Below are positions 2 through 41,085 of a DNA stretch of 41,085 nucleotides, piece after piece (position 1 is the stretch's first letter; every line of letters starts with the position of its first letter). The DNA comes from a virus: the IMG/VR virus record IMGVR_UViG_3300019468_000025, positions 1 through 41,085 of that record; one strand, written 5' to 3'. The translations under genes and the position numbers were made by a program. The notes below the pieces were generated by a model that had not been told where the DNA came from, ran no database searches, and saw nothing but the letters and a program-made list of their open reading frames with translations.

Positions 2-799
2 GTGGTACCTTGTGCTGAGCTTACTGTTCAGCAGCATCTAGACTCTATGGCTTATACTAATGCTTGTAACCCTGATACTGTGTATGCTTTTACTTCTAAG
101 GCTGCCGAAGACTTACAAGGTGCTGATGGTAGTATCTTTAAGAAAGCCAAAGACCTAAAATATCGCCGTACTATTGGTATCTACTCCACTAAGCATGAAG
201 ATGCCGTAGCTGGTATCATGGCTTATGCTATGGGTATGATGACTGGCACAGTAAATAGTGCTTTCACATTGAAGTTTAAGAGCATCTCTGGTGTAGCAAC
301 TGAGAACTCTGAATCTGCTGTATCTGTATCCGCCGTTGACAAACTTAAAAAGCAAAATGGTAATATCTATGTGAACCGCGGCTATTACTATGATATGTTC
401 GAAGAAGGCACTATGGCGGATGGCACATTCTTTGATGAAATCATTTACTTGGATAAATTAAAGAATGACTGCCAACTTGCACTCATGGACTTGTTTGTAC
501 AGAATGCCAAAATTGCCCAAACAGAGGGTGGCATGACTCGTATTCATAACGCACTCAATGGTGTGTTAAAAGACTACCAAAAAATTGGTTACTTAGAGAC
601 CGGTATTTGGCGTGGTAGTAATATTTTGGACCTCAAATATGGCGATACTGTCAACAATGGCTATCTAGTTCAATCTGAGCCTATTGCTGAACAGAATCAG
701 TCTGACCGTGAGAACCGTATTGCTCCGCCTATCTATATCGCTCTAAAACTTGCTGGTGCTATTCATAGTGCAGTAGTTCAAATTGATGTTAACCGATAG
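2..799 (+). CDS. Tail sheath protein, 3' portion; the 5' part is at 40630..41085, joined across the circular junction
   Basis: The ORF entering from the window start is in frame with the ORF at 40630 when the 127-bp terminal duplication is collapsed. It sits upstream of the tube, chaperone and tape measure genes, and its size and position fit a sheath. Confidence 0.55.
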   Translation: MVPCAELTVQQHLDSMAYTNACNPDTVYAFTSKAAEDLQGADGSIFKKAKDLKYRRTIGIYSTKHEDAVAGIMAYAMGMMTGTVNSAFTLKFKSISGVATENSESAVSVSAVDKLKKQNGNIYVNRGYYYDMFEEGTMADGTFFDEIIYLDKLKNDCQLALMDLFVQNAKIAQTEGGMTRIHNALNGVLKDYQKIGYLETGIWRGSNILDLKYGDTVNNGYLVQSEPIAEQNQSDRENRIAPPIYIALKLAGAIHSAVVQIDVNR

Positions 800-9016: not shown

Positions 9017-10351
9017 ATGGCAGCTAATAACTTCAAGGTCTTTAATGAGTCTAAGACCAATATTATGAATGATACCGATTATGGTACTCACATTCAACGG
9101 AAGAACGGTGTAGTGAGTGGGGTTGCTATCTCAGCCCTCCACAACAAGCTTTACCGACAAACTTCTATTGTAGCTAAAGCTGTGGCTGACTTTATCGCTA
9201 GCCAAGAGCTAGATGCTACGGACAATGACTCGGCACTATTCTCTACTAACCTAATAAAGGCATTAGAGAAAGTAACTAAGTTACCTCTTGACGGTCACCG
9301 TACACAAGAAGTACTTGACCACCCAGACCAATCTGTGACTACCGCTAAGGTCAAAGACCTAGCTATCACAGAGGGTAAATTAGCCAAGGATTCAGTCACA
9401 GAAGCCAAAATAAAAGACCTATCAGTGACTACTCGTAAGCTTAATGATAAGTCTGTAACCATGACCAAGGTAGATGATGAAGTCAAGAAATACCTAGTGG
9501 ATACTTATATTAAAAAGTCTGGCGATAGTATAGACGGTGACCTTATATTCAAAGGCTCTAAGGGCTCTGTATACTTTAACCCTAACAACTCTGTAAGTGC
9601 TAAGGTCTATGTGAATAACAATGGCACATTGGACATTGGTGTGAATAACTCTGCTAATGGGGCAGTAGATAATATAGCACTATGCAGTATGAATAAACCT
9701 AAGTGGTATAATAAAAACAGCGGGCCCAAAGCTCTTGCTACGGAGGAAGATGTGACCAATGCGGTAGCTAAGAAAGTATCTAAGGCCGGTGATACCATGA
9801 CTGGTAACCTCACCTTAGATACTACCTCTACTATTATCATCAATAAGAAAGGAGGTAAAGGTAGTCATACCATCGGTGATGGTGGCTCTAATGGCGGTGA
9901 TACCAACCTGGATATAGGGTCCTATATAGACACACCAGAAGCTAATCTGTGCTGTTATGAAAGACCAGGATGGTGGGGTGAAAATAAGCAAAAGGTATGG
10001 AAGCCATTCCTAACTATACCAGATATAAGTATTACCTCTGGCAATATCAATAACGGTGAGCTGTTGCCTATACCAGAAGGGTTTACTGAAAGTGAGTGTC
10101 ATTGGCTTTTAAGTATGGACCAATCTAACCCAGAGAGATGGTTCCTAGACATTAGAGAAGGCGGCCCTTGTAACATGATTAATTTTGAGTGCTGGAGGGA
10201 AGGACGTACAGTCCATGTGGGTGTTAGATATGGTGGCGTTGATGGCTTATCTAAGAACTATGCTTCACAAAATCAAATAGGTGTAAATGGCGCCGAGGTG
10301 TTTATTGGCGGTAGAGCTAATTATATTTGTATTGCAGTCAAGAAAGCCTAG
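9017..10351 (+). CDS. Tail fiber protein
   Basis: An ATG at 9017 follows a ribosome-binding site and lies just after the upstream stop. The protein contains roughly 10-aa repeats (SVTxAKIKDLSVTTRKL...). Confidence 0.55.
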   Translation: MAANNFKVFNESKTNIMNDTDYGTHIQRKNGVVSGVAISALHNKLYRQTSIVAKAVADFIASQELDATDNDSALFSTNLIKALEKVTKLPLDGHRTQEVLDHPDQSVTTAKVKDLAITEGKLAKDSVTEAKIKDLSVTTRKLNDKSVTMTKVDDEVKKYLVDTYIKKSGDSIDGDLIFKGSKGSVYFNPNNSVSAKVYVNNNGTLDIGVNNSANGAVDNIALCSMNKPKWYNKNSGPKALATEEDVTNAVAKKVSKAGDTMTGNLTLDTTSTIIINKKGGKGSHTIGDGGSNGGDTNLDIGSYIDTPEANLCCYERPGWWGENKQKVWKPFLTIPDISITSGNINNGELLPIPEGFTESECHWLLSMDQSNPERWFLDIREGGPCNMINFECWREGRTVHVGVRYGGVDGLSKNYASQNQIGVNGAEVFIGGRANYICIAVKKA

Positions 10352-15236: not shown

Positions 15237-16636
15237 TAGCCAGCTAGTATCTCTCGTAGGTCATCTATCGTATAATCAGCGATGTCTTTCTTATCGAGTA
15301 TCGACTGCCAGAACAGCTCATCTACGGTGTCCTCTGCGATGAGGTATATGTATTTGATCAATCGGGACTGTTGGCCAATACGGTTGATACGGTCACAAGC
15401 CTGTGTGTGGTCTGTGTATGAACGGCCGAGTGAGTAGAAAATCATCGTATGAGCGGCTGTAAGGGTGATTCCTACCCCTCCTGTACTAATTTGTATTACG
15501 ATAACACGGGGCTCCTCTCTCGACTGAAATTGGCTAATGATTTTGCCCCTTATTTTTTTGCTGGTAGCACCTGTGATACACAGGGTCTCTATGCCTACGT
15601 CTTCAAGGGCATCTACGATACCATGAATTTCAGGTATATACTGGGCAAAGATAACTAGCTTCTCTTCACTGTCTTTGACATACTCAACAAGGGCATTGAG
15701 CTTAGCCTTGCTCACCAGGGTAACCTCTCTACCGTTATCACCCTCGGTGGTGAGATAGCCCCCAGCGATTTGGTGACATCGCATACCAACAAGAGCTGGT
15801 ATCGGAGCTGTACTGAACTTACCATCCATTTGTACAATGGCTTCTTTGGCCATCTTCTCATATATCTTACGTGCCTTAGGCTCTAGGGTTACATAGATAT
15901 TCTGACGTACTATTTCTGGTGGTGGTAACTCTTTGACGTCCTTCTTTAACTTCCGGTAAGCATATTTATACACAATGCCCATGAGGTGGTCTAGGTCCTT
16001 ATATTTGCGTGGCCTATTCCACATATCAAGCACAGCATATCTCTCACGGAAGGACTTATAAGTGCAATCAAAGATAGAGCTATCTAGGAAGTTGATTTGT
16101 GAATACAAATCTAATGGATATTTTGTGACCGGTGTGCCGGTTAGAATCGCTTTGAATGGTATACCCTTACCGATACGAGAAGCTGCCTTTGTGGCGTGTG
16201 TATTCCAATTTTTTATCTTGTGTGACTCATCACACACCATAATGTCCGCCTTGTACTTCATCAATCGCACCGATGGCTCCCAGCGTTTATTCTTCTTTTT
16301 GGAGAACTCCCATAGCTTTTCATAATTGACGATGACTATTTCTAGGCAGTTCTTAGGTGATGTACCTAGCTTGTCTAGCTCAACTACATTGTATGGGAAA
16401 GCAGCATGCTCTTTGAGCTGCCTCTCCCAATCATACACCACAGAGAGCGGGCATACTACGATAGCACGGCGAGCGTTATCGTGGTAGAACCGGTAACCCA
16501 TCATGGCTATAGTGGGCAATGTCTTACCGGTACCAGGCTCCATAAACAAAGCAAAGCTAGGTAAATGAATACCTAGCTCATATGCTTCTTTTTGATGTTC
16601 GAGGAATTGCGTCTTTATGATACGTTTTAGCTCCAT
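15236..16636 (-). CDS. SNF2-family helicase
   Basis: Walker A GTGKT, a DESH box, LTGTP, and helicase-C motif VI QACDRINRIGQ. Confidence 0.85.
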   Translation of the reverse strand: MELKRIIKTQFLEHQKEAYELGIHLPSFALFMEPGTGKTLPTIAMMGYRFYHDNARRAIVVCPLSVVYDWERQLKEHAAFPYNVVELDKLGTSPKNCLEIVIVNYEKLWEFSKKKNKRWEPSVRLMKYKADIMVCDESHKIKNWNTHATKAASRIGKGIPFKAILTGTPVTKYPLDLYSQINFLDSSIFDCTYKSFRERYAVLDMWNRPRKYKDLDHLMGIVYKYAYRKLKKDVKELPPPEIVRQNIYVTLEPKARKIYEKMAKEAIVQMDGKFSTAPIPALVGMRCHQIAGGYLTTEGDNGREVTLVSKAKLNALVEYVKDSEEKLVIFAQYIPEIHGIVDALEDVGIETLCITGATSKKIRGKIISQFQSREEPRVIVIQISTGGVGITLTAAHTMIFYSLGRSYTDHTQACDRINRIGQQSRLIKYIYLIAEDTVDELFWQSILDKKDIADYTIDDLREILAG

Positions 16637-20044: not shown

Positions 20045-22381
20045 CTACGATTTAGAGAGCTCTTTAAGTCTTTTAAAGTTCACTCCGTTGATGTCATCAT
20101 ACACCACTTCACCTGAGCCCCAAGGGCCAGCCTTTACCTCAACGTCTATAGGCACAGTAATTTGTGTCTTAAAGACTTTCTCGATGTGTTCCATATCCGT
20201 CATGATGTCTACAATCACAGGTACCGCTTCCTCTAGATAGTCATTACGTACCTCAAAGAGAATAGCGTCATGGACAGTACCTATAATTTTAACTCTTTCC
20301 ATGTCTAAGGTGTGAGCGATTCTAACCAGAGAGAATATATTGAAATCAGAGCCCAACCCCTGTACAGGTGAGTTTATAGCTTGACGTTCAGCTTCTGCGG
20401 CCAGTTTTTTGTCGCTGCTGTATATATCAGGCAAGTTCCTCTTACGTCCAACTAGGCTCCTTACATACCCATATTTTTTAACAATACGCCTCATGCGGTC
20501 ATGCCATGTAGGTAAGGCAAAGTAGGATTCAAAGAATCTCTGGCGAGTCTCGATAGCTTCTTCCTCGGTGTAATCTACTCCATATTTATCACGGGCATAC
20601 TCACGGAATTTCTTAGCGGACATACCATACAGGAAGCCAAAGTTAACTGCCTTGGCTTTCTTACGTTGGTCCTTTGTGACTTCCTCGAGTGGTACGCCCA
20701 TCACATTGGAGGCAGTCTTCTGGTGTACATCAATACCAGTTTGAAAGCACATTTTTAGTGTTGGGTCACCACTCATGATAGCGGCTATACGTAGCTCAGC
20801 TTGTGAGTAGTCGGCTTCACATAATGTCCAGCCAGGTGGTGCACTAATCAAAGAGCGTACTAGCTTATTACGTGGCACCTGTTGGAGATTAGGGTCCTTG
20901 CAGGAGATACGGCCAGTCACTGTGCCATGCAGTAGGAAAGAAGGGTGTATACGGTTATCAATGCTGACCTCTTTCCACTTGGTAGGGAATTCCAGCAATT
21001 TCTTTTGCTCACGGTAAGACAATAACTCACCAATGATGGGGTGCTGGTCTTTCAACCGTGGTAGCACACTTTCACCATTGGTGCTTGGCTTACCTGATTT
21101 TGTGAGCTCTAATATCGGTAGTCCCATTTCATCATAAAGTAGCTTAGCTAATTGCTGTGAGCTATTCCAATTAATATCATCATGACCAGACAGTTCAGCT
21201 AATGTCTTCAAAGAGGCTTGCATACTACCAGAGAGTTGACTAATCACACTGTCTACTTTGTCTGGGTCTATGTATGCACCATGTAGCTCAACGTCTTCAA
21301 AAGCTCGTGAAGCGGGCATAATAAGCTTGTTAAACAATCTAGCCAAAGGCTTATCAGCCATAAGCTCCTTACGTTGTAAGTGATATAGCCGGAGAGTATA
21401 ATGTACATCATAGGCATTATATTTGGCTAGCTTTCTCATATCTAGCTCATTAGCACCGTGGTCTTCTAAGGCATAACTAGGTGCATTGAGTAATACAGTA
21501 GCCATAGCTTTGAGCCCATTAGGTGTGTTTTCATTCAATAGAGCAGAGGCTAACATGGTATCAAAGGTCTGGTGAAATCTCCAACCCAGTTTGGTATACA
21601 TCATTTTGTTATCAAACTTGCCATTTTGTGCTATCAATTTCTTGCCTTTTGTGACCTGTGAGACCTGCTCTAATATTTTGATAAGGTTTCTATCGTCAGA
21701 GGACCAAGGGGACCCGTCATGGTCAATTGGGATAACCCATTCAGCGCCATCAACGCCTAATCCTAAACAGGTAATTTTGACATCAGGGTCTAGTGGGTTA
21801 AGGCCTGTGGTCTCAATATCATAAGAGATAGCGTCAGCAGCAGCGAGTGACCTAATCATAGCTTTGGCTTTATTAGGTGTATTCACAAGAGTAAAATTAA
21901 GTACATTCTCATCTTCGATACGGCCACCGATGACCTTAGAGAAGGTGTTCCAATGTGCTTTAACAAGCTCCCACTTCTGTGGCTGTCTAAATGTGATTGC
22001 AGGGTCCATGCTGAACATATAGGTCCTATCATCAATAGTAGTATTCATACCAGCATTCTCTGTGATTTTACCTTTACCAAGTATAGCGGTCACAGCCATA
22101 GCACCAATACCAATCACATAATTAAATTTGTCTAATATAGGTACGATACGCTCCTTATATGATTCTTGTATTTGCTTCTTAGGTACCTTCTCAGTGACTA
22201 GCTGCTCACAGATATAGGCCGTAGAACATTCCTCAGGCTCTACACCTAATATGGCTATAAGCTCATTGAGTTGTTTCTTGATTCTACCAGAGAATGGTTT
22301 ACCTGTGGCCTCATCAGAGTAACCAGGTTGACCCCCTAGTATAAGTATATTAGAGCATTTCTTAATATCTAAGTACATCAT
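20045..22381 (-). CDS. Family A DNA polymerase with 3'-5' exonuclease and an N-terminal family-4 UDG-like domain
   Basis: ExoI ISYDIETTG; motif A DYSQAELRIAA; motif B KAKAVNFGFLYGMS; motif C VHDAILFEV. The N-terminus reads ILGGQPGYSDEATGKPFSG, which resembles the UDG-family-4 GEAPG...GxPFxG motif. Confidence 0.85.
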   Translation of the reverse strand: MMYLDIKKCSNILILGGQPGYSDEATGKPFSGRIKKQLNELIAILGVEPEECSTAYICEQLVTEKVPKKQIQESYKERIVPILDKFNYVIGIGAMAVTAILGKGKITENAGMNTTIDDRTYMFSMDPAITFRQPQKWELVKAHWNTFSKVIGGRIEDENVLNFTLVNTPNKAKAMIRSLAAADAISYDIETTGLNPLDPDVKITCLGLGVDGAEWVIPIDHDGSPWSSDDRNLIKILEQVSQVTKGKKLIAQNGKFDNKMMYTKLGWRFHQTFDTMLASALLNENTPNGLKAMATVLLNAPSYALEDHGANELDMRKLAKYNAYDVHYTLRLYHLQRKELMADKPLARLFNKLIMPASRAFEDVELHGAYIDPDKVDSVISQLSGSMQASLKTLAELSGHDDINWNSSQQLAKLLYDEMGLPILELTKSGKPSTNGESVLPRLKDQHPIIGELLSYREQKKLLEFPTKWKEVSIDNRIHPSFLLHGTVTGRISCKDPNLQQVPRNKLVRSLISAPPGWTLCEADYSQAELRIAAIMSGDPTLKMCFQTGIDVHQKTASNVMGVPLEEVTKDQRKKAKAVNFGFLYGMSAKKFREYARDKYGVDYTEEEAIETRQRFFESYFALPTWHDRMRRIVKKYGYVRSLVGRKRNLPDIYSSDKKLAAEAERQAINSPVQGLGSDFNIFSLVRIAHTLDMERVKIIGTVHDAILFEVRNDYLEEAVPVIVDIMTDMEHIEKVFKTQITVPIDVEVKAGPWGSGEVVYDDINGVNFKRLKELSKS

Positions 22382-22797
22382 CTTACCACCTCGATACCAG
22401 CATACACAAGAGTTCTATAACCATTGTGCTTGCCATTGTATTCACTCATAATCACTACTTTCTTTACTCCCGCATTGATAAGTAGCTTAGCACAAGAGTG
22501 ACATGGGCATACAGTCACATAGCATGTAGAGCCTTCGAGAGCGATACCTTTCCGAGCGGCATAGCTAATAGCCGAGGCCTCTGCATGAAGAGCATTAGTA
22601 CAGTGGTGGTCACTGTCTTCTTGACAGCCAACTTCTGTACAATGTGGCATACCAGAGGGAGCACCATTGTAGCCCGTACATACGATTCTACCATCTAGTG
22701 TGAATACTGCCCCAACTTGAAGTTTAGGGCAGGTACCACGTTTGGACACAAGTTGAGCTATTTCTTTGTATAGTTCATCTCGTGCAATTCTTTCCAT
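22378..22797 (-). CDS. dCMP deaminase (cytidine/deoxycytidylate deaminase zinc-binding fold)
   Basis: HAEASAI and CPCHSCAKLL motifs. Confidence 0.8.
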   Translation of the reverse strand: MERIARDELYKEIAQLVSKRGTCPKLQVGAVFTLDGRIVCTGYNGAPSGMPHCTEVGCQEDSDHHCTNALHAEASAISYAARKGIALEGSTCYVTVCPCHSCAKLLINAGVKKVVIMSEYNGKHNGYRTLVYAGIEVVR

Positions 22798-23480
22798 TAG
22801 AATACTCCTTTGATATCCTTAATGAATACATGGAGAGAGCCTATCCAGTGAGTAAATACACCCGGCCTTATTCCAAGCTTTTTAGCTATATGATGTTGCA
22901 TAAGTACGGCTAAATACACATCATTATTGAAATGTGTAGCGAAGTCACTAGAGCGCTGTAGGTAGGTGATATTAAGCTTCCCTTTACGTATTTGGAATTG
23001 ATAACCAAGAGTACAAGGTACACGAGATACACCACCTGTTTTAGTGATATCTTCCGGAGTCCAGACAGACATATAGGCTTGTCGGCTATACATATCATTT
23101 TCAAGGGTAGACACTACACGGTCTATTTGATTGAAGTCACTGATGCGGTCAGGGTAAGTATAACCAAACTTGCCTTCATCGTCTAGGAAATCGTCCCATA
23201 CGTCTTTACGTAGTCTATAGGCTTCACCTGGATTCATGTGCTTACCAGAGATACGCTCCTGGAACTCAGCATCTGCCCATGGCTGTGTTGGTTGCATTTC
23301 AGAAGGGTTACTTGTATCATACACACAGTACATATAGTTCTGGAGCTCCTTAGTGGCCATCTGTGGGTCATCGCCAATATATTTATCTTGGTAGGTTTGT
23401 GTATGTACACCGATACCCATCTCAGCTAAATCACGTCTTACCTCTGAGCGTACTTCTCTAAAATCTTGGTATATTCTCAT
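22797..23480 (-). CDS. Thymidylate-synthase-fold protein (ThyA or dNMP hydroxymethylase family), divergent and short
   Basis: The C-terminal half aligns with the ThyA core (VPCTLGYQFQIRKGKLNITYLQRSSDF...GSLHVF against PCH..QFYV.DGKLSCQLYQRS.D...GD.H.Y). The N-terminal half lacks the ThyA-like TGTGT loop region. Confidence 0.55.
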   Translation of the reverse strand: MRIYQDFREVRSEVRRDLAEMGIGVHTQTYQDKYIGDDPQMATKELQNYMYCVYDTSNPSEMQPTQPWADAEFQERISGKHMNPGEAYRLRKDVWDDFLDDEGKFGYTYPDRISDFNQIDRVVSTLENDMYSRQAYMSVWTPEDITKTGGVSRVPCTLGYQFQIRKGKLNITYLQRSSDFATHFNNDVYLAVLMQHHIAKKLGIRPGVFTHWIGSLHVFIKDIKGVF

Positions 23481-24241
23481 TTGATATATCCTTCTTTCTT
23501 TAATACTTTATAGCAGTAATCTAAATCATCACAATATGAGTAGTAGAATTCATGCATACGTCTTTGGGCACGGAATTTATCCTGGTGCTCTGGGTCAAGA
23601 CTCGCATGGTGACCAATACAGTAAAGCATCTTATGTCTCCAATAGTCATGTGGGCATTTAACCACAAAATCCATAACCTCTTTGGCCGGCATGAATTGAA
23701 ATAGTAAGATAGTGAATAGTCCTTGACTATAGGCAGACCCGAACGTAAAGTCTACATATTGTAGCTCTTTCCCTTTGATAAGTGGCGGTATGATATTATG
23801 ATGGAGCCAATATAGGTCAGCACCGAACTTCTGGATAATCTCAGTAGAACGGTAATTCAGGAATACCCATGCTCTCTTCTTATCTACCACAAGAGTTAAG
23901 TTGTTTAAGCAATACCCTTGGGACTTAGCTCTTTTAGGTTTGTGACCAAAGTCAAATGTCAAGATACTAGCGCCCATATCACTCCTGAGGTCAAGCTTAT
24001 CTAGGAACATTTGATAGCGTTCTTTATCTAAGTAGTTCCGTTCAAGATGTTTTATCTTGCTTTCATTACTACTATAGGATAAGTCCACAAGGTCATGTGA
24101 GCACCCTTCTAGCCAGTCATCACCGGGTATTCTAAATCTATGGCCAATACGTAGCTTCGTGAGCCCCTTTACAATCATGGGCTCCGAGCTATCATAGGCT
24201 AAGTCTTTAATTTGTTGTAGCCAATGTTCCGTAATGTTCAT
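23477..24241 (-). CDS. Hypothetical protein (254 aa) within the nucleotide-metabolism cluster
   Basis: No motif recognised. It is translationally coupled to both neighbours. Confidence 0.5.
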   Translation of the reverse strand: MNITEHWLQQIKDLAYDSSEPMIVKGLTKLRIGHRFRIPGDDWLEGCSHDLVDLSYSSNESKIKHLERNYLDKERYQMFLDKLDLRSDMGASILTFDFGHKPKRAKSQGYCLNNLTLVVDKKRAWVFLNYRSTEIIQKFGADLYWLHHNIIPPLIKGKELQYVDFTFGSAYSQGLFTILLFQFMPAKEVMDFVVKCPHDYWRHKMLYCIGHHASLDPEHQDKFRAQRRMHEFYYSYCDDLDYCYKVLKKEGYIK

Positions 24242-24891
24242 TAGTAGTTACTCCGTTGGCGGAACTTATTGACTTCATTCTTACGGAAATAGAGACCATA
24301 TACCTCTTTGGCTGTGAGACCAGCTCTTACAAGTACAGCAAGTAGCATAAGTAGTGCTTCTTTCATGTAGCCGTAGAACTTGTCTTCATCGGTCATCATT
24401 TGTGATTGTTTCCATGGCTTATTTTTGAGGCAGTTCATAGCAAGACCCACCTTCTCAATGATGTGGTATTCAGTAACCGGCTTCATACCCATCACATATA
24501 AATTTCCTAGGTCCATGAGGTAGACTAATAGGTCAGTTTTTAGACCGTCTGGTCGGTATGATTCAGGGCTAAGACCAGCTAAGATTTGTTGCTCAACCAT
24601 GAAGTGTAGAGCGTCAATCATTTCTTCTAGGTAGTGTTCATAGTGGTCTAACACATCACGTGCCTCAGTGGCTTCTGTGACTTCTTCTGTAATACGCCAA
24701 GCAAAGTCTTTCAATCGTGCTTGACCCTTAGAGTCATGGATATTTACAGGGCAGTCAGGTGTCTGGAGCAAGCCATTACGTTCTTCGATAGGGTGATATT
24801 TCACCATAAGAGCTGCTTGACGTTCGAAGATAGCTTCTAAGTAACCCCCTTGTGGGTAGTCTGTTGGCGCTGTAAAATCATTAATGTTCAT
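24241..24891 (-). CDS. All-alpha NTP pyrophosphatase, dimeric dUTPase/dCTPase-like
   Basis: EEMIDALHFMV and a C-terminal LYFRKNEVNKFRQRSNY resemble dimeric dUTPase motifs (vDiwHFil; YigKNvLNifRQ..GY). Confidence 0.45.
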   Translation of the reverse strand: MNINDFTAPTDYPQGGYLEAIFERQAALMVKYHPIEERNGLLQTPDCPVNIHDSKGQARLKDFAWRITEEVTEATEARDVLDHYEHYLEEMIDALHFMVEQQILAGLSPESYRPDGLKTDLLVYLMDLGNLYVMGMKPVTEYHIIEKVGLAMNCLKNKPWKQSQMMTDEDKFYGYMKEALLMLLAVLVRAGLTAKEVYGLYFRKNEVNKFRQRSNY

Positions 24892-24892
24892 T

Positions 24893-25396
24893 TTAGTGTT
24901 CCTCCAATCTGTCTAGTACACGTTGAGCATCTGGGTCTTTTGTGAAGTCATAATAAATCACATTATCCTTACCCAATAGCTTCTGTGCAGTTCTCATCAA
25001 GTTTCTATATGCTAATAAGCATTTAATGTCGTTCTCTTTGACACCGTCCATCTGTTCACGTTCATGGAATGTACCACGAATAACCTCTATACCTGGGTCA
25101 CAATAGATAACCAACGGATGAGCATCTACTAGCATGAATAGTAAATCTTCTAGGTAGTTGCTGATGTCACTATACCCACGTATGATATTGCCATAGACAG
25201 TCTCACTGAATATAGGGAATCTATCGTAGATTCTGCTGTCAGTGCGAGCTAGCTCATCTTTACACCATTGAACGTGTTCAGCACATGGGCCGGGTGAGAC
25301 TACTACCTCGTGATGAGGTAGGTAGCTCGACAGTTTTTTAACTAAGGTGGACTTACCGGTGTTGTCCATGCCTTCAATGATTATGAGTTTCTTCAT
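24893..25396 (-). CDS. Thymidylate-kinase-like dNMP kinase
   Basis: A P-loop IIIEGMDNTGKST and a DRF..S..VYG motif (the Tmk DRY motif). Confidence 0.65.
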   Translation of the reverse strand: MKKLIIIEGMDNTGKSTLVKKLSSYLPHHEVVVSPGPCAEHVQWCKDELARTDSRIYDRFPIFSETVYGNIIRGYSDISNYLEDLLFMLVDAHPLVIYCDPGIEVIRGTFHEREQMDGVKENDIKCLLAYRNLMRTAQKLLGKDNVIYYDFTKDPDAQRVLDRLEEH

Positions 25397-25754
25397 TGGC
25401 CTGGTTTTCCTCCTTAGCTTTTTCTTTCTCTACTGCGTTTATTACTTCTTTAAGTAATGGTACATCAAGATATTGGAGTGTTTCTAATGTGGCGATAGAT
25501 AATGGTACATTATTACCATTCGCAAAGCAAGAGAAAGCCTCCTCGTCACCCCGTTTATCTAAATAGAGTACGTTCTTTTGGCCACTAGCTGAGTATGCTG
25601 TCATAATGGCCTCTGCAAACTCCATATTATCTTCTGGGAATCGTAGTAAGAGTTGATACAACAAGGTATACATAGCATGAGCTATTTCTTTACCTTGTAA
25701 CTCCTGGTCAATAACTACTGTAAGATTATTGTCTTTCTCTAGTACAATCTTCAT
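25374..25754 (-). CDS. Hypothetical protein (126 aa)
   Basis: An ORF in the early leftward operon. Confidence 0.45.
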   Translation of the reverse strand: MKIVLEKDNNLTVVIDQELQGKEIAHAMYTLLYQLLLRFPEDNMEFAEAIMTAYSASGQKNVLYLDKRGDEEAFSCFANGNNVPLSIATLETLQYLDVPLLKEVINAVEKEKAKEENQANEETHNH

Positions 25755-25755
25755 C

Positions 25756-26070
25756 TTAACCTTCTTTCTGCCAAAGATGATTGGCGTTTTTTACATTAAA
25801 GTCACGGGTACTAATACCGCATACAGAGCAGTTTTTAGTACCTAAATGGTTGTTGGTAATGAAAGTACGTTCTTGACCACAGTATGGGCACCAGTACTTA
25901 CTACCTCTGTGCTTATAACCAACAGGCGGCTCACCATTGCCATCATTGTTAACTATCATAGCTCTGGTATTCCCATCTCTCATGCGATTAGCCACCTCTT
26001 GTGCAATCGGTAAAGCTAGGGGCTTTGTTTCAGCCTTCTTACCATTTCTTGATACAAATACCTTGTACAT
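25756..26070 (-). CDS. Zinc-ribbon protein (CxxC...CxxC), first gene of the leftward early operon
   Basis: The motif CPYCGQERTF...CSVCG, and an AAAGGAGG ribosome-binding site. Confidence 0.5.
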   Translation of the reverse strand: MYKVFVSRNGKKAETKPLALPIAQEVANRMRDGNTRAMIVNNDGNGEPPVGYKHRGSKYWCPYCGQERTFITNNHLGTKNCSVCGISTRDFNVKNANHLWQKEG

Positions 26071-26116: not shown

Positions 26117-26145
26117 TTATGCTCATATTATATCACCCCGAAAGT
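26117..26145 (-). promoter_or_regulatory. Leftward early promoter (TTTACA-17-TGaTATAAT on the minus strand)
   Basis: On the minus strand the sequence reads ctatttacaaattactttcggggtgatataat. Confidence 0.6.
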
Positions 26146-26176
26146 AATTTGTAAATAGTAAAATTCTACAAAATGA

Positions 26177-26205
26177 TTGACAATTTATAGTAGCATATTT
26201 ATAAT
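26177..26205 (+). promoter_or_regulatory. Rightward early promoter (TTGACA-17-TATAAT)
   Basis: Consensus hexamers with a 17-nt spacer, divergent from the leftward promoter. Confidence 0.65.
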
Positions 26206-26256
26206 GTAATCATACAACAATATCTATATTATATACATTATAAAGGTGGTGAGACA

Positions 26257-26427
26257 GTGCTGATAAGTACCAATGAAGTCGCTAAGCGCTATGGTGTAAC
26301 TAATCGCCAGGTGCTATATGCTATTCGTATGAAGAAGATTAAGGGTAAAAAAGTAGGTTGGTCATGGGTGTGTGATACGAGGTATCTACCTGAAAAGTGG
26401 CCCGTTAGAGGTTATAATAATGATTGA
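26257..26427 (+). CDS. Small HTH_17/excisionase-like DNA-binding protein (56 aa, GTG start)
   Basis: An AAGGTGGTGAG ribosome-binding site. The protein reads VLISTNEVAKRYGVTNRQVLYAIRMKKIKGKKVGWSWVC. It is not in the ORF track. Confidence 0.5.
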   Translation: MLISTNEVAKRYGVTNRQVLYAIRMKKIKGKKVGWSWVCDTRYLPEKWPVRGYNND

Positions 26428-40040: not shown

Positions 40041-40621
40041 TGAAGTACAATGAGTTATATACCCTTTTAAAGTCTTGTATCTGTGATTGCTTAGTCGTTG
40101 ATATTGATAGCGGTAAAGTCCGTGAAGCTTATCAACAATCAGACGCACCACAGTTCACTATTAATGATGATGTAATTATCACTTATCTCACTGAGAAAGA
40201 TGATAGCTATGCTCATCAACGTAATGTCTCTTATAGTGATAGTAGTAACTCTGTTATTCGTCACCATAAAGGCACTAGGGTGTGGTCTTTACATTGCTAT
40301 TGCTATGGTCCAAACGCCTATGACAATGCGGACCTTATCCGTAGTAAGATATTGACACATGCCTTGAAATCCAAGTTACACTCTAATGGTGTAGCTATTG
40401 TACCTGAAATTCCAACTATTGTCAATACACCTGAGCAGGCCCAAGGTCAATGGTGGACAAGGTATGATATTACTTTGGTATTTAATGAGTCTTATGATTA
40501 TACTGAGGACGTTGGTACGATTGAACATATCAATACTACTGTGAGTATTGCTAAATCACCGGACCCAGCGACACCAGATAAACATAGGGCCACTCATGAT
40601 ATGTTTAACACTAACCGATAG
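40040..40621 (+). CDS. Tail terminator or sheath initiator (putative)
   Basis: Position immediately upstream of the sheath gene, with a GGGGG ribosome-binding site. Confidence 0.3.
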   Translation: MKYNELYTLLKSCICDCLVVDIDSGKVREAYQQSDAPQFTINDDVIITYLTEKDDSYAHQRNVSYSDSSNSVIRHHKGTRVWSLHCYCYGPNAYDNADLIRSKILTHALKSKLHSNGVAIVPEIPTIVNTPEQAQGQWWTRYDITLVFNESYDYTEDVGTIEHINTTVSIAKSPDPATPDKHRATHDMFNTNR

Positions 40622-40629
40622 GAGGACAA

Positions 40630-41085
40630 ATGCCAACTAAACCTTTACAACTCAATGAGGTAGTTAACTTTGTGGTTAACCTAGCTCAGCGCTCTGCTCA
40701 ACGTAAAGCCTTTAATGTTATGCTCCTCGTAGGTAAGAACTCTGTGATTCCTAAGGAAGAACGTGTACGAACTTACACTACACTAGAAGCTATGCTTAGT
40801 GACGGCTTTACTGTAACTGACCGACTATATAAAGCTGCTGCTTTGATTAAAGCACAGTCTCGGTCTCCAGTGAAATTCTGTATTGGTACACAAGATACCA
40901 ATGAAACCATGGTACAAGCTATTACTGCTTGCCGTGAAGCTAATTATGAGTGGTATGTAGTGGTACCTTGTGCTGAGCTTACTGTTCAGCAGCATCTAGA
41001 CTCTATGGCTTATACTAATGCTTGTAACCCTGATACTGTGTATGCTTTTACTTCTAAGGCTGCCGAAGACTTACAAGGTGCTGAT
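40630..41085 (+). CDS. Tail sheath protein, 5' portion (continues at window position 128)
   Basis: A ribosome-binding site (TAGGAGGACAA). The frame matches ORF 2..799 through the terminal duplication. Confidence 0.55.
   Translation, partial: MPTKPLQLNEVVNFVVNLAQRSAQRKAFNVMLLVGKNSVIPKEERVRTYTTLEAMLSDGFTVTDRLYKAAALIKAQSRSPVKFCIGTQDTNETMVQAITACREANYEWYVVVPCAELTVQQHLDSMAYTNACNPDTVYAFTSKAAEDLQGAD
40959..41085. repeat. 127-bp terminal duplication of window positions 1-127 (circular-contig overlap)
   Basis: Identity checked by direct reading of both ends. Confidence 0.9.

Follow-up and report, generated by a model that had tools for sequence, protein, structure and literature searches.

A conserved phage operon with two ThyA-fold proteins: a candidate pathway for cytosine modification at the nucleotide level

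In the 41 085 nucleotides (nt) of the IMG/VR virus record IMGVR_UViG_3300019468_000025 (positions 1 to 41 085, the whole of which is referred to below as the window), we studied a block of seven closely packed open reading frames (ORFs) on the minus strand, which occupies positions 26070-22378 in the ORF list and runs on into the gene for a family A DNA polymerase (PolA). Each gene shares 1-4 nt with the next or stands 1 nt away from it, apart from the ORF for a protein of 126 amino acids (aa) and the kinase gene, whose overlap is 23 nt. A sequence-only reading had grouped five of these genes into a nucleotide-metabolism cluster on one strand, and all five are ORFs of the minus strand, where it had placed them (Table 1). 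They encode a deaminase of the deoxycytidine monophosphate (dCMP) deaminase family, a compact homologue of the thymidylate synthase (TS) ThyA, a 254-aa protein then described as unknown, a pyrophosphohydrolase and a kinase. The suggestion made at that time, that the cluster is a candidate operon for DNA-base modification rather than for plain salvage, is supported by the analysis described here, which centres on the ThyA homologue and the 254-aa protein.

Table 1. Genes and promoter-like sites of the leftward operon and its borders, in window coordinates.
Feature	Coordinates	Strand	Length (aa)	Matches and remarks
dCMP-deaminase-family zinc deaminase	22378..22797	-	139	PF00383 dCMP_cyt_deam_1, E=1.2e-22; phrog_174, E=1.3e-47
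Compact ThyA homologue	22797..23480	-	227	Pfam Thymidylat_synt, E=4.9e-23
Second, highly divergent ThyA-fold protein	23477..24241	-	254	Predicted structure
All-alpha NTP pyrophosphohydrolase, dimeric dUTPase/MazG-like	24241..24891	-	216	PF08761 dUTPase_2, E=4.3e-8; phrog_12184, E=1.4e-29
P-loop nucleoside-monophosphate kinase-like protein	24893..25396	-	167	phrog_761 'thymidylate kinase', E=3.2e-21
Family A DNA polymerase with 3'-5' exonuclease and N-terminal UDG-like domain	20045..22381	-		PF00476, 3.7e-92; PF01612, 4.9e-16; PF03167, 1.3e-5
126-aa protein	25374..25754	-	126	Lineage-specific, outside the conserved module
Zinc-ribbon protein, first operon gene	25756..26070	-	104	Weak Zn-ribbon/Lar-like matches only; phrog_28450, E=7e-8
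Promoter-like site TTTACA-17-TATAAT with TG	26127..26155	-		Consensus scan, pattern match only; putative driver of the leftward operon
Perfect TTGACA-17-TATAAT	26177-26205	+		Consensus scan; faces primase/helicase gene

The Pfam domain Thymidylat_synt covers residues 93-224 only of the 227-aa protein, which correspond to positions 78-216 of the 266 in the profile. The sequence-only reading had described the N-terminal half as unlike ThyA; this holds for the sequence and fails for the fold, 208 residues of the AlphaFold2 (AF2) model (mean predicted local distance difference test score, pLDDT, 95.0) aligning to a ThyA-fold structure. The conserved C-terminal motif it had quoted was approximately right, the actual sequence being PCTLGYQFQIRKGKLNITYLQRSSD. 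Our alignment set the protein against E. coli ThyA, T4 gp42, Xp12 TS, RB69 gp48 and SPO1 gp29; the last three sequences came from GenBank records, that of E. coli ThyA agrees at the numbered residues, and that of T4 gp42 is 100% identical to the T4 records. The catalytic Cys146 of the E. coli enzyme corresponds to Cys156 of the window protein, and the phosphate-binding Arg166 and Ser167 to Arg176 and Ser177, so that the residues expected of a ThyA fold are kept. The folate-linked Trp80, Asp169 and Tyr94 are likewise kept (Trp95, Asp179 and Tyr109), here and in the closer relatives, the equivalent of Glu58 having been assigned by eye. At the other positions compared, His207 is retained as His217, Trp83 is replaced by Phe98, Arg126-Arg127 by Arg133-Gln134, Leu143 by Arg153, His147 by Thr157, Asn177 by Asp187 and Tyr209 by Phe219. 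The chain ends 10 residues past His217, and the C-terminal lid of ThyA is therefore missing. Positions 58 to 209 are given below in E. coli numbering unless a window residue is named.

Position 177 is Asp in the 227-aa protein, in T4 gp42 (Asp179 of that protein) and in Xp12 TS, and Asn in E. coli ThyA and SPO1 gp29. The change from Asn177 to Asp is a published determinant of preference for dCMP over deoxyuridine monophosphate (dUMP), and it is the top residue separating ThyA homologues found on experimentally modified metavirome contigs (PMC8670742; PMC13326640). A search of Protein Data Bank (PDB) sequences with the 227-aa protein ranks the L. casei TS mutant N229D first, above the wild-type enzyme, because the 227-aa protein has Asp in that column. 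Since the 227-aa protein has, and the 254-aa protein appears to have, Asp where dUMP-specific enzymes have Asn, the predicted substrate is dCMP, and the 227-aa homologue is predicted to act on dCMP and not on dUMP. The sequence-only reading had missed both this residue and the ThyA fold of the 254-aa 'unknown', and its proposal of a thymidine replacement or modification pathway is not borne out: besides the Asp at the selector position, Pfam detected no thymidine-hypermodification family, 5-HMUDK and aGPT-Pplase included, in the cluster or among the other window ORFs scanned. Across 80 IMG/VR loci the signature R143-C146-[S/T]147-R166-D169-D177-H207-[F/Y]209, together with R126-Q127, is essentially invariant; Asp177 and Arg143 do not vary, position 169 is Asp in 79 of the 80 loci and Glu in the remaining one, and the C-terminal tail is very short wherever it could be measured. 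A word-indexed search of public data returned 1147 matches to this R143/D177 clade.

Neither the 254-aa protein nor 62 homologues of it gave any match in Pfam or NCBIfam, the family profile found nothing among PDB sequences, and hhalign put the probability at 0.1% when the 254-aa and 227-aa families were compared. Homologues numbered 2 by the word-indexed search and 129 representatives (at the 50% identity level) by an exhaustive HMMER search. Because sequence and profile searches failed, the homology of this protein to ThyA rests on structure. Its AF2 model, built from 77 sequences (pLDDT 95.8; predicted template modelling score, pTM, 0.92), has the ThyA fold, and the nearest solved structure, that of a 5-hydroxy-dCMP synthase, shares ~11% identity with it. 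Judged by this model the 'unknown' is a second, divergent ThyA fold, which supports its earlier nomination as a candidate for an additional modification step. Residues Lys62, Tyr70, Lys103, Cys111, Arg131 and Asp142 are invariant in the family. From Cys111 to Arg131 is +20 and from Arg131 to Asp142 is +11, as for Cys146, Arg166 and Asn177 of ThyA, and the three residues lie in the corresponding strand, strand and helix of the model; their probable equivalence was drawn from this spacing, from the secondary-structure positions and from weak profile alignments that give the same register. At the position of Asp169 the family has a nearly invariant Glu (Glu134). The segment that carries the folate-binding Trp80 and Trp83 and helix B of ThyA is absent from the model, and the C-terminal third is a novel all-helical bundle. 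We infer from the model that the 254-aa protein would be a covalent enzyme that attacks C6 of a cytosine nucleotide through its Cys and uses some cofactor that is not folate. No informative domain fusion was seen among the long members of the family.

Pairing of the two genes was counted in IMG/VR loci found either through the 254-aa family (21) or through the R143/D177 ThyA clade (70 with at least 1 kb on either side). A 254-family gene lies within 2.5 kb of the ThyA gene in 63 of the 70 (upstream in 58, downstream in 5), the paired genes mostly overlapping or standing within ~75 bp of each other, and all of the 21 that have sequence on both sides show an R143/D177 ThyA gene adjoining, in either order. 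These counts support a functional coupling of the two ThyA-fold genes. The order that recurs is kinase, pyrophosphatase, 254-family gene, ThyA, (deaminase), PolA; the kinase keeps its position in most related loci and PolA is syntenic in nearly all, while the deaminase gene adjoins the ThyA gene in most and is missing from loci of the Clostridium perfringens type. Cultured phages with the module are C. perfringens CPD4 and its relatives, Serratia phage Serbin, Yersinia phage vB_YenM_P744, whose 254-aa homologue is annotated 'pyrimidine hmase synthase', Pseudomonas phage PMBT14 and Mycobacterium phage Muddy. In CPD4 a thymidine kinase takes the place of the deaminase, and CPD4_72 and CPD4_73 are, respectively, 36% identical to the window kinase and 46% identical to the window pyrophosphohydrolase. 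The module of Muddy (locus L110; NC_022054, 3078-8609) consists of gp49 (kinase), gp48 (pyrophosphatase), gp47 (254-family), gp46 (R143/D177 ThyA), gp45 (deaminase) and gp44 (PolA). Both ThyA-fold genes were detected in Brevundimonas phages, and the 254-family gene alone in Pseudomonas phages Lebethron and Almagne. The records of phages FF47 and Maco match the ThyA query at an identity equal to that of Muddy.

Some loci depart from this arrangement around the 254-family gene. Two copies adjoin the ThyA gene in L058, L061, L083, L051 and L076, which suggests duplication and divergence of the enzyme. In L086 (3844-5004) and L088 (2343-3497), a C5-cytosine DNA methylase (PF00145; E=3e-20 and 8e-19, respectively) occupies the slot of the 254-family gene between pyrophosphatase and ThyA, which may offer a clue to what the 254-aa protein does, and in L096 the upstream gene is that of an N6/N4 DNA methylase.

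Our preferred reading, to which we assign a probability of about 0.55, is that the operon encodes a pre-replicative pathway for modification of dCMP at C5, following the logic of T4 and Xp12, and that a 5-substituted cytosine replaces some or all of the cytosine in the phage DNA; candidates for the C5 group are methyl, hydroxymethyl or something new. The analogy with T4 drawn by the sequence-only reading, from a ThyA-fold enzyme accompanied by a dNMP kinase, an NTP pyrophosphatase and a dCMP deaminase, has the right logic. These are the four functional classes of the pre-replicative 5-hydroxymethylcytosine (hmC) pathway of T4 (gp56 dCTPase/dUTPase, gp42 dCMP hydroxymethylase, gp1 dNMP kinase and cd dCMP deaminase), and the 227-aa protein resembles gp42 in its cytosine-selecting Asp, in the Thr after the catalytic Cys and in the lack of a C-terminal lid. 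In metaviromes with modified cytosine, dCMP-deaminase genes co-localize with Asp177 ThyA homologues, an all-alpha pyrophosphatase and PolA; five of the seven such homologues tested made 5-methyl-dCMP (5mdCMP), and a neighbouring deaminase, mSCD-B5, converted 5-methyl-dCTP to thymidine triphosphate (dTTP) (bioRxiv 10.1101/2024.12.05.627091). The window operon shares this neighbourhood. It is likewise that of the 5-methylcytosine (5mC) pathway of Xp12, PaMx74 and mSCD-B5, where the Asp177 homologue adjoins a dCMP-deaminase-family gene near PolA and the all-alpha pyrophosphatase. Among the larger window ORFs scanned, Pfam recognized neither a glycosyltransferase nor any other tailoring enzyme, which fits a simple pre-replicative modification.

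In the pathway that we propose, the 216-aa protein, a putative dCTPase and possibly also a dUTPase by analogy with T4 gp56, would convert dCTP to dCMP, both depleting the canonical precursor and feeding the pathway. Cys156 of the 227-aa protein would then attack C6 of dCMP, with Asp187 recognizing the cytosine, and one carbon would pass from methylene-tetrahydrofolate to C5. The absence of a lid and the polar Arg143 slightly favour a non-reductive outcome, 5-hydroxymethyl-dCMP, over 5-methyl-dCMP, each being a candidate product; the adjoining deaminase and the results on metavirome homologues are pointers to the methyl product. The 254-aa protein, with an apparent Cys/Arg/Asp core and without the folate-binding helices, would act without folate on dCMP or on what the 227-aa enzyme makes of it, and it is most like a flavin-dependent dCMP hydroxylase. 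The P-loop protein, by analogy with T4 gp1 a putative kinase for modified dCMP, would phosphorylate the modified monophosphate, the host NDP kinase would complete the triphosphate and the phage PolA would incorporate it. The deaminase, whose candidate substrates are dCMP and 5-substituted dCMP or dCTP, would feed a thymidine branch, either from dCMP to dUMP, as in T4, or from 5-methyl-dC to dT nucleotides, as in the model for Xp12 and mSCD-B5.

A number of findings weigh against this pathway. The 227-aa protein, on the residues aligned, is a fit to none of the four characterized ThyA types with which we compared it. TS enzymes select dUMP with Asn177 and seal the active site for hydride transfer with the C-terminal tail and the hydrophobic Leu143 (PMC6400193), whereas the window protein has Asp187, no lid and Arg153. 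The signature of T4-type dCMP hydroxymethylases is an Asp or Glu at -3 from the Cys and a Ser or Thr two residues before the catalytic Tyr, and the D145N mutant is inactive (PMC6400193). The window protein agrees with this type in the equivalent of Asp179, which serves in cytosine recognition and N3 protonation, and in the missing C-terminal tail, but it has Arg153 in place of the Asp at -3 (an Asp that SPO1 gp29 shares with gp42), Tyr107 in place of the Ser, and R126-Q127 in place of Arg-Arg. The window also differs from T4 in having, among the ORFs scanned, no glucosyltransferases, separate true TS or dihydrofolate reductase (DHFR), in its additional ThyA-fold protein, and in the arrangement of its genes as one compact operon adjoining PolA. 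With the Xp12 type, which is represented by the single example of Xp12, the window protein shares Asp177 and the adjoining dCMP-deaminase-family gene. Xp12 TS, however, has 289 aa with a full C-terminal extension, Arg-Arg at 126/127, Asn143 and an adjoining DHFR gene; the window has a shorter protein with Arg143 and a second ThyA-fold partner, and among the window ORFs scanned Pfam turned up no DHFR. The rule that residue 143 separates methylases (Leu) from hydroxymethylases was considered as a guide to the product and set aside as not decisive, the verified methylase of Xp12 having Asn and the window protein Arg there. The flavin-dependent 5-hydroxy-dCMP synthases (RB69 gp48, DLP3 gp80 and HY126 AfhB; PDB 9iqc/9iqu) are short ThyA folds with Asp177 and no C-terminal lid and are the nearest solved structures of both window proteins. 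Their published diagnostic, D169N, is absent from both, the 227-aa protein having Asp179 and the 254-aa protein Glu134; moreover, no arabinose or glycosyl-transfer genes were found among the window ORFs scanned, and PF00303 misses the 254-aa protein. The sequence-only reading had looked to an alignment of the 227-aa protein with ThyA and the hydroxymethylases to tell the two apart; with Asp177, no lid and Arg143, the protein matches no published class.

That every product signature failed beside a conserved second ThyA fold leaves room for different chemistry. The 254-aa family could be a new folate-independent branch of ThyA, the 227-aa enzyme installing one carbon on dCMP and the 254-aa enzyme re-forming the exocyclic methylene through the Cys-C6 adduct, or carrying out a flavin-dependent oxidation or hydroxylation, to give an undescribed 5-substituted deoxycytidine made at the nucleotide level. 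We advance this tandem scheme tentatively, as a possibility well short of even odds.

To the failed signatures must be added, on the same side of the balance, that the role of the 254-aa protein in the pathway is pure inference and that its family evolves faster than any other of the module. A mirror-tree test showed all the module genes co-varying equally (r = 0.81-0.92), with no special co-evolution of the 227-aa and 254-aa proteins, and for one 254-family member (281 aa, L002:6001-6846), found separately from the 21 loci above, a ThyA partner could not be detected within 6 kb, so that this family can evidently occur on its own. The equal co-variation gives no support to an obligate heterodimer of the two proteins, and this lone gene also tells against one. 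In L002 the gene adjoins one for a NADAR-domain protein, and an ORF at 9624-10265 resembles an NTP pyrophosphatase by eye. The family names, dUTPase for the pyrophosphatase and thymidylate kinase for the kinase, stand on the same side. In open-access papers and preprints we found nothing on the R143 clade, the 254-aa family, their pairing or the DNA chemistry of the carrier phages, CPD4, Serbin, P744 and Muddy included.

Cytosine-containing sites are avoided in the window: GATC occurs once (position 15356) against ~117 expected from a second-order Markov model (z = -13), and CGCG three times against 24 expected. Were cytosine modified in a fully protective way, such avoidance would not be needed, and it therefore also tells against modified cytosine. 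TGCA is found 72 times against 119 expected, and the observed/expected ratio of CpG is 0.60. Serbin, P744 and L054 have next to no GATC in their module regions, and the site is also depleted in the region of RB69. Because RB69, with hypermodified cytosine, likewise avoids GATC, we rejected site avoidance as a proxy for modification, finding it uninformative. No exact k-mers of the window were present in the MetaGPA 'modified contigs' file.

The operon might instead lead from dCMP to thymidine monophosphate (dTMP) and leave the DNA unmodified, the ThyA homologue making 5-methyl-dCMP, the deaminase or the second ThyA fold turning it into dTMP and the Tmk-like kinase yielding dTDP, with a boost to dTTP that does not pass through dUMP. 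This bypass gives every gene a role and suits the Pfam and PHROG names 'dUTPase' and 'thymidylate kinase', the AT-rich genome (42% GC in the window) and the continued avoidance of GATC and CGCG; furthermore, 5mC-selective deaminases that convert 5-methyl-dC to dT nucleotides are documented beside Asp177 ThyA homologues (bioRxiv 10.1101/2024.12.05.627091). Those documented cases (Xp12 and the mSCD-B5 contig), however, go with full replacement of C by 5mC, and Asp177 homologues are enriched on modified contigs. Any 5-methyl-dCMP that escaped deamination would be phosphorylated and incorporated, loci of the C. perfringens type have the four core genes without a deaminase, and the 227-aa enzyme lacks the C-terminal lid that TS needs for reductive methylation; we regard the bypass as unlikely. 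We take a similarly reserved view of 5-hydroxycytosine (5hoC) as the product, with one or both ThyA-fold proteins acting as flavin-dependent dCMP 5-hydroxylases like RB69 gp48 or HY126 AfhB. The very short C-terminus and the Phe209 that the 227-aa protein has in common with gp48, and the loss of the folate-binding helices from the 254-aa protein, would suit such enzymes. The absence of D169N, with Asp in 79 of 80 loci of the one clade and a nearly invariant Glu in the other family, the retention of Trp80, which gp48 lacks, and the want by Pfam of the sugar-activation and glycosyltransferase genes that known 5hoC phages have make it quite unlikely here.

Two further alternatives would place the operon in thymidine metabolism. 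5-Hydroxymethyl-dUMP could be the intermediate by which thymidine is replaced or hypermodified, whether formed directly by a dUMP hydroxymethylase or indirectly by deamination of 5-hydroxymethyl-dC nucleotides, and some phage deaminases did produce 5-hydroxymethyl-dU (5hmdU) from 5-hydroxymethyl-dC (5hmdC) nucleotides in vivo (bioRxiv 10.1101/2024.12.05.627091). The gene set is like that of the 5-hydroxymethyluracil (hmU) pathway of SPO1 (dUMP hydroxymethylase, dUTPase/dTTPase, kinase and deaminase), and R126-Q127 is common to SPO1 gp29 and the R143/D177 clade. SPO1 gp29, however, is a protein of 383 aa with a long C-terminal extension, Asn177 and Asp at -3 from the Cys; the latter Asp, which T4 gp42 has too, is missing from the window protein, and the uracil/cytosine selector is Asp in the 227-aa protein, invariantly so in the 80 loci, and apparently also in the 254-aa protein. 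As the thymidine-hypermodification families are also wanting among the ORFs scanned, we consider this decidedly improbable, and thymidine modification is the reading least consistent with the aligned residues. Ordinary salvage that boosts dTTP, through a dCMP deaminase, a true TS, a dUTPase and a thymidylate kinase, agrees with the database names and with the GenBank annotations of the phage homologues. It would have to accommodate, in the supposed TS, the changes of Asn177 to Asp, Leu143 to Arg and Arg127 to Gln and the loss of the C-terminal lid, and it leaves the co-conserved second ThyA-fold gene unexplained; we give it very little credence.

If the pre-replicative modification of dCMP that we favour is true, Muddy, the CPD4 group of C. 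perfringens phages and the Serratia, Yersinia and Pseudomonas phages would have non-canonical DNA, which bears on evasion of restriction and CRISPR, sensitivity to Type IV restriction, host range, artefacts of sequencing and cloning, and engineering. The tandem scheme would imply a new base in many gut, soil and therapeutic phages, Muddy and the C. perfringens phages included. The R143/D177 clade, with more than 1100 homologues, has a product that is predicted by none of the published residue rules, and the 254-aa family, absent from Pfam and NCBIfam, would be a further unannotated branch of the ThyA fold. Changes of cofactor or product among ThyA-fold enzymes have lately given both new chemistry (5-hydroxycytosine) and useful tools (5mC-selective deaminases). 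Since cultured isolates with the module exist, among them the therapeutic phage Muddy, the question can be tested now.

Among the remaining genes of the operon, the 167-aa kinase has in Pfam a P-loop match alone, below the cut-off, and its top PDB sequence match is SPbeta YorR (2axp). The 126-aa ORF had also been put forward as a possible modification step; it has no match in Pfam, PHROG or NCBIfam, and among the related loci examined its homologues are confined to the close relatives L008-L012 and L029-L033, which speaks against such a role. A minority of related loci have a homologue of the 104-aa zinc-ribbon protein in the corresponding place upstream of the kinase gene, the CPD4 version having 175 aa. 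In some relatives the deaminase gene encodes 319-357 aa (L003:2456-3529; L013:7587-8546; L015:7451-8416), and a LAGLIDADG domain in that of L003 suggests an intein or a homing-endonuclease insertion. The PolA gene, which overlaps the deaminase gene by 4 nt, encodes a domain resembling uracil-DNA glycosylase (UDG) in its N-terminal ~135 aa, a fusion kept in relatives such as L003. The motif of family 4 UDG is GE(A/G)PG; because the window protein has GGQPG instead and no obvious HPS motif, this domain may be catalytically inactive.

The leftward operon and the primase/helicase gene are 300 bp apart, and divergent promoter-like sites (window 26127-26266) lie in this gap. Given the packing of the genes and these facing sites, the cluster reads as the start of a leftward replication operon, and the perfect consensus of the rightward site suggests a host that uses canonical sigma-70-type promoters. 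Structural proteins of a contractile tail, lysis proteins, terminase, portal and capsid proteins, and proteins of replication or recombination account for the other larger ORFs of the window. Megablast of the 6-kb region against a phage collection gave no match, and the nearest relatives of this uncultivated phage are gut contigs of IMG/VR. The first ORF of the window (2-799) encodes a tail-sheath-like protein (DUF3383), of which the C-terminal part, matching profile positions 227-491, is present. When the two ends of the window (2-799 and 40621-41085) were joined, the reading frame of this cut ORF was not restored, and the window is therefore perhaps not a complete circle; related IMG/VR contigs are 41.1-41.3 kb long, and the contig is probably near-complete rather than closed.

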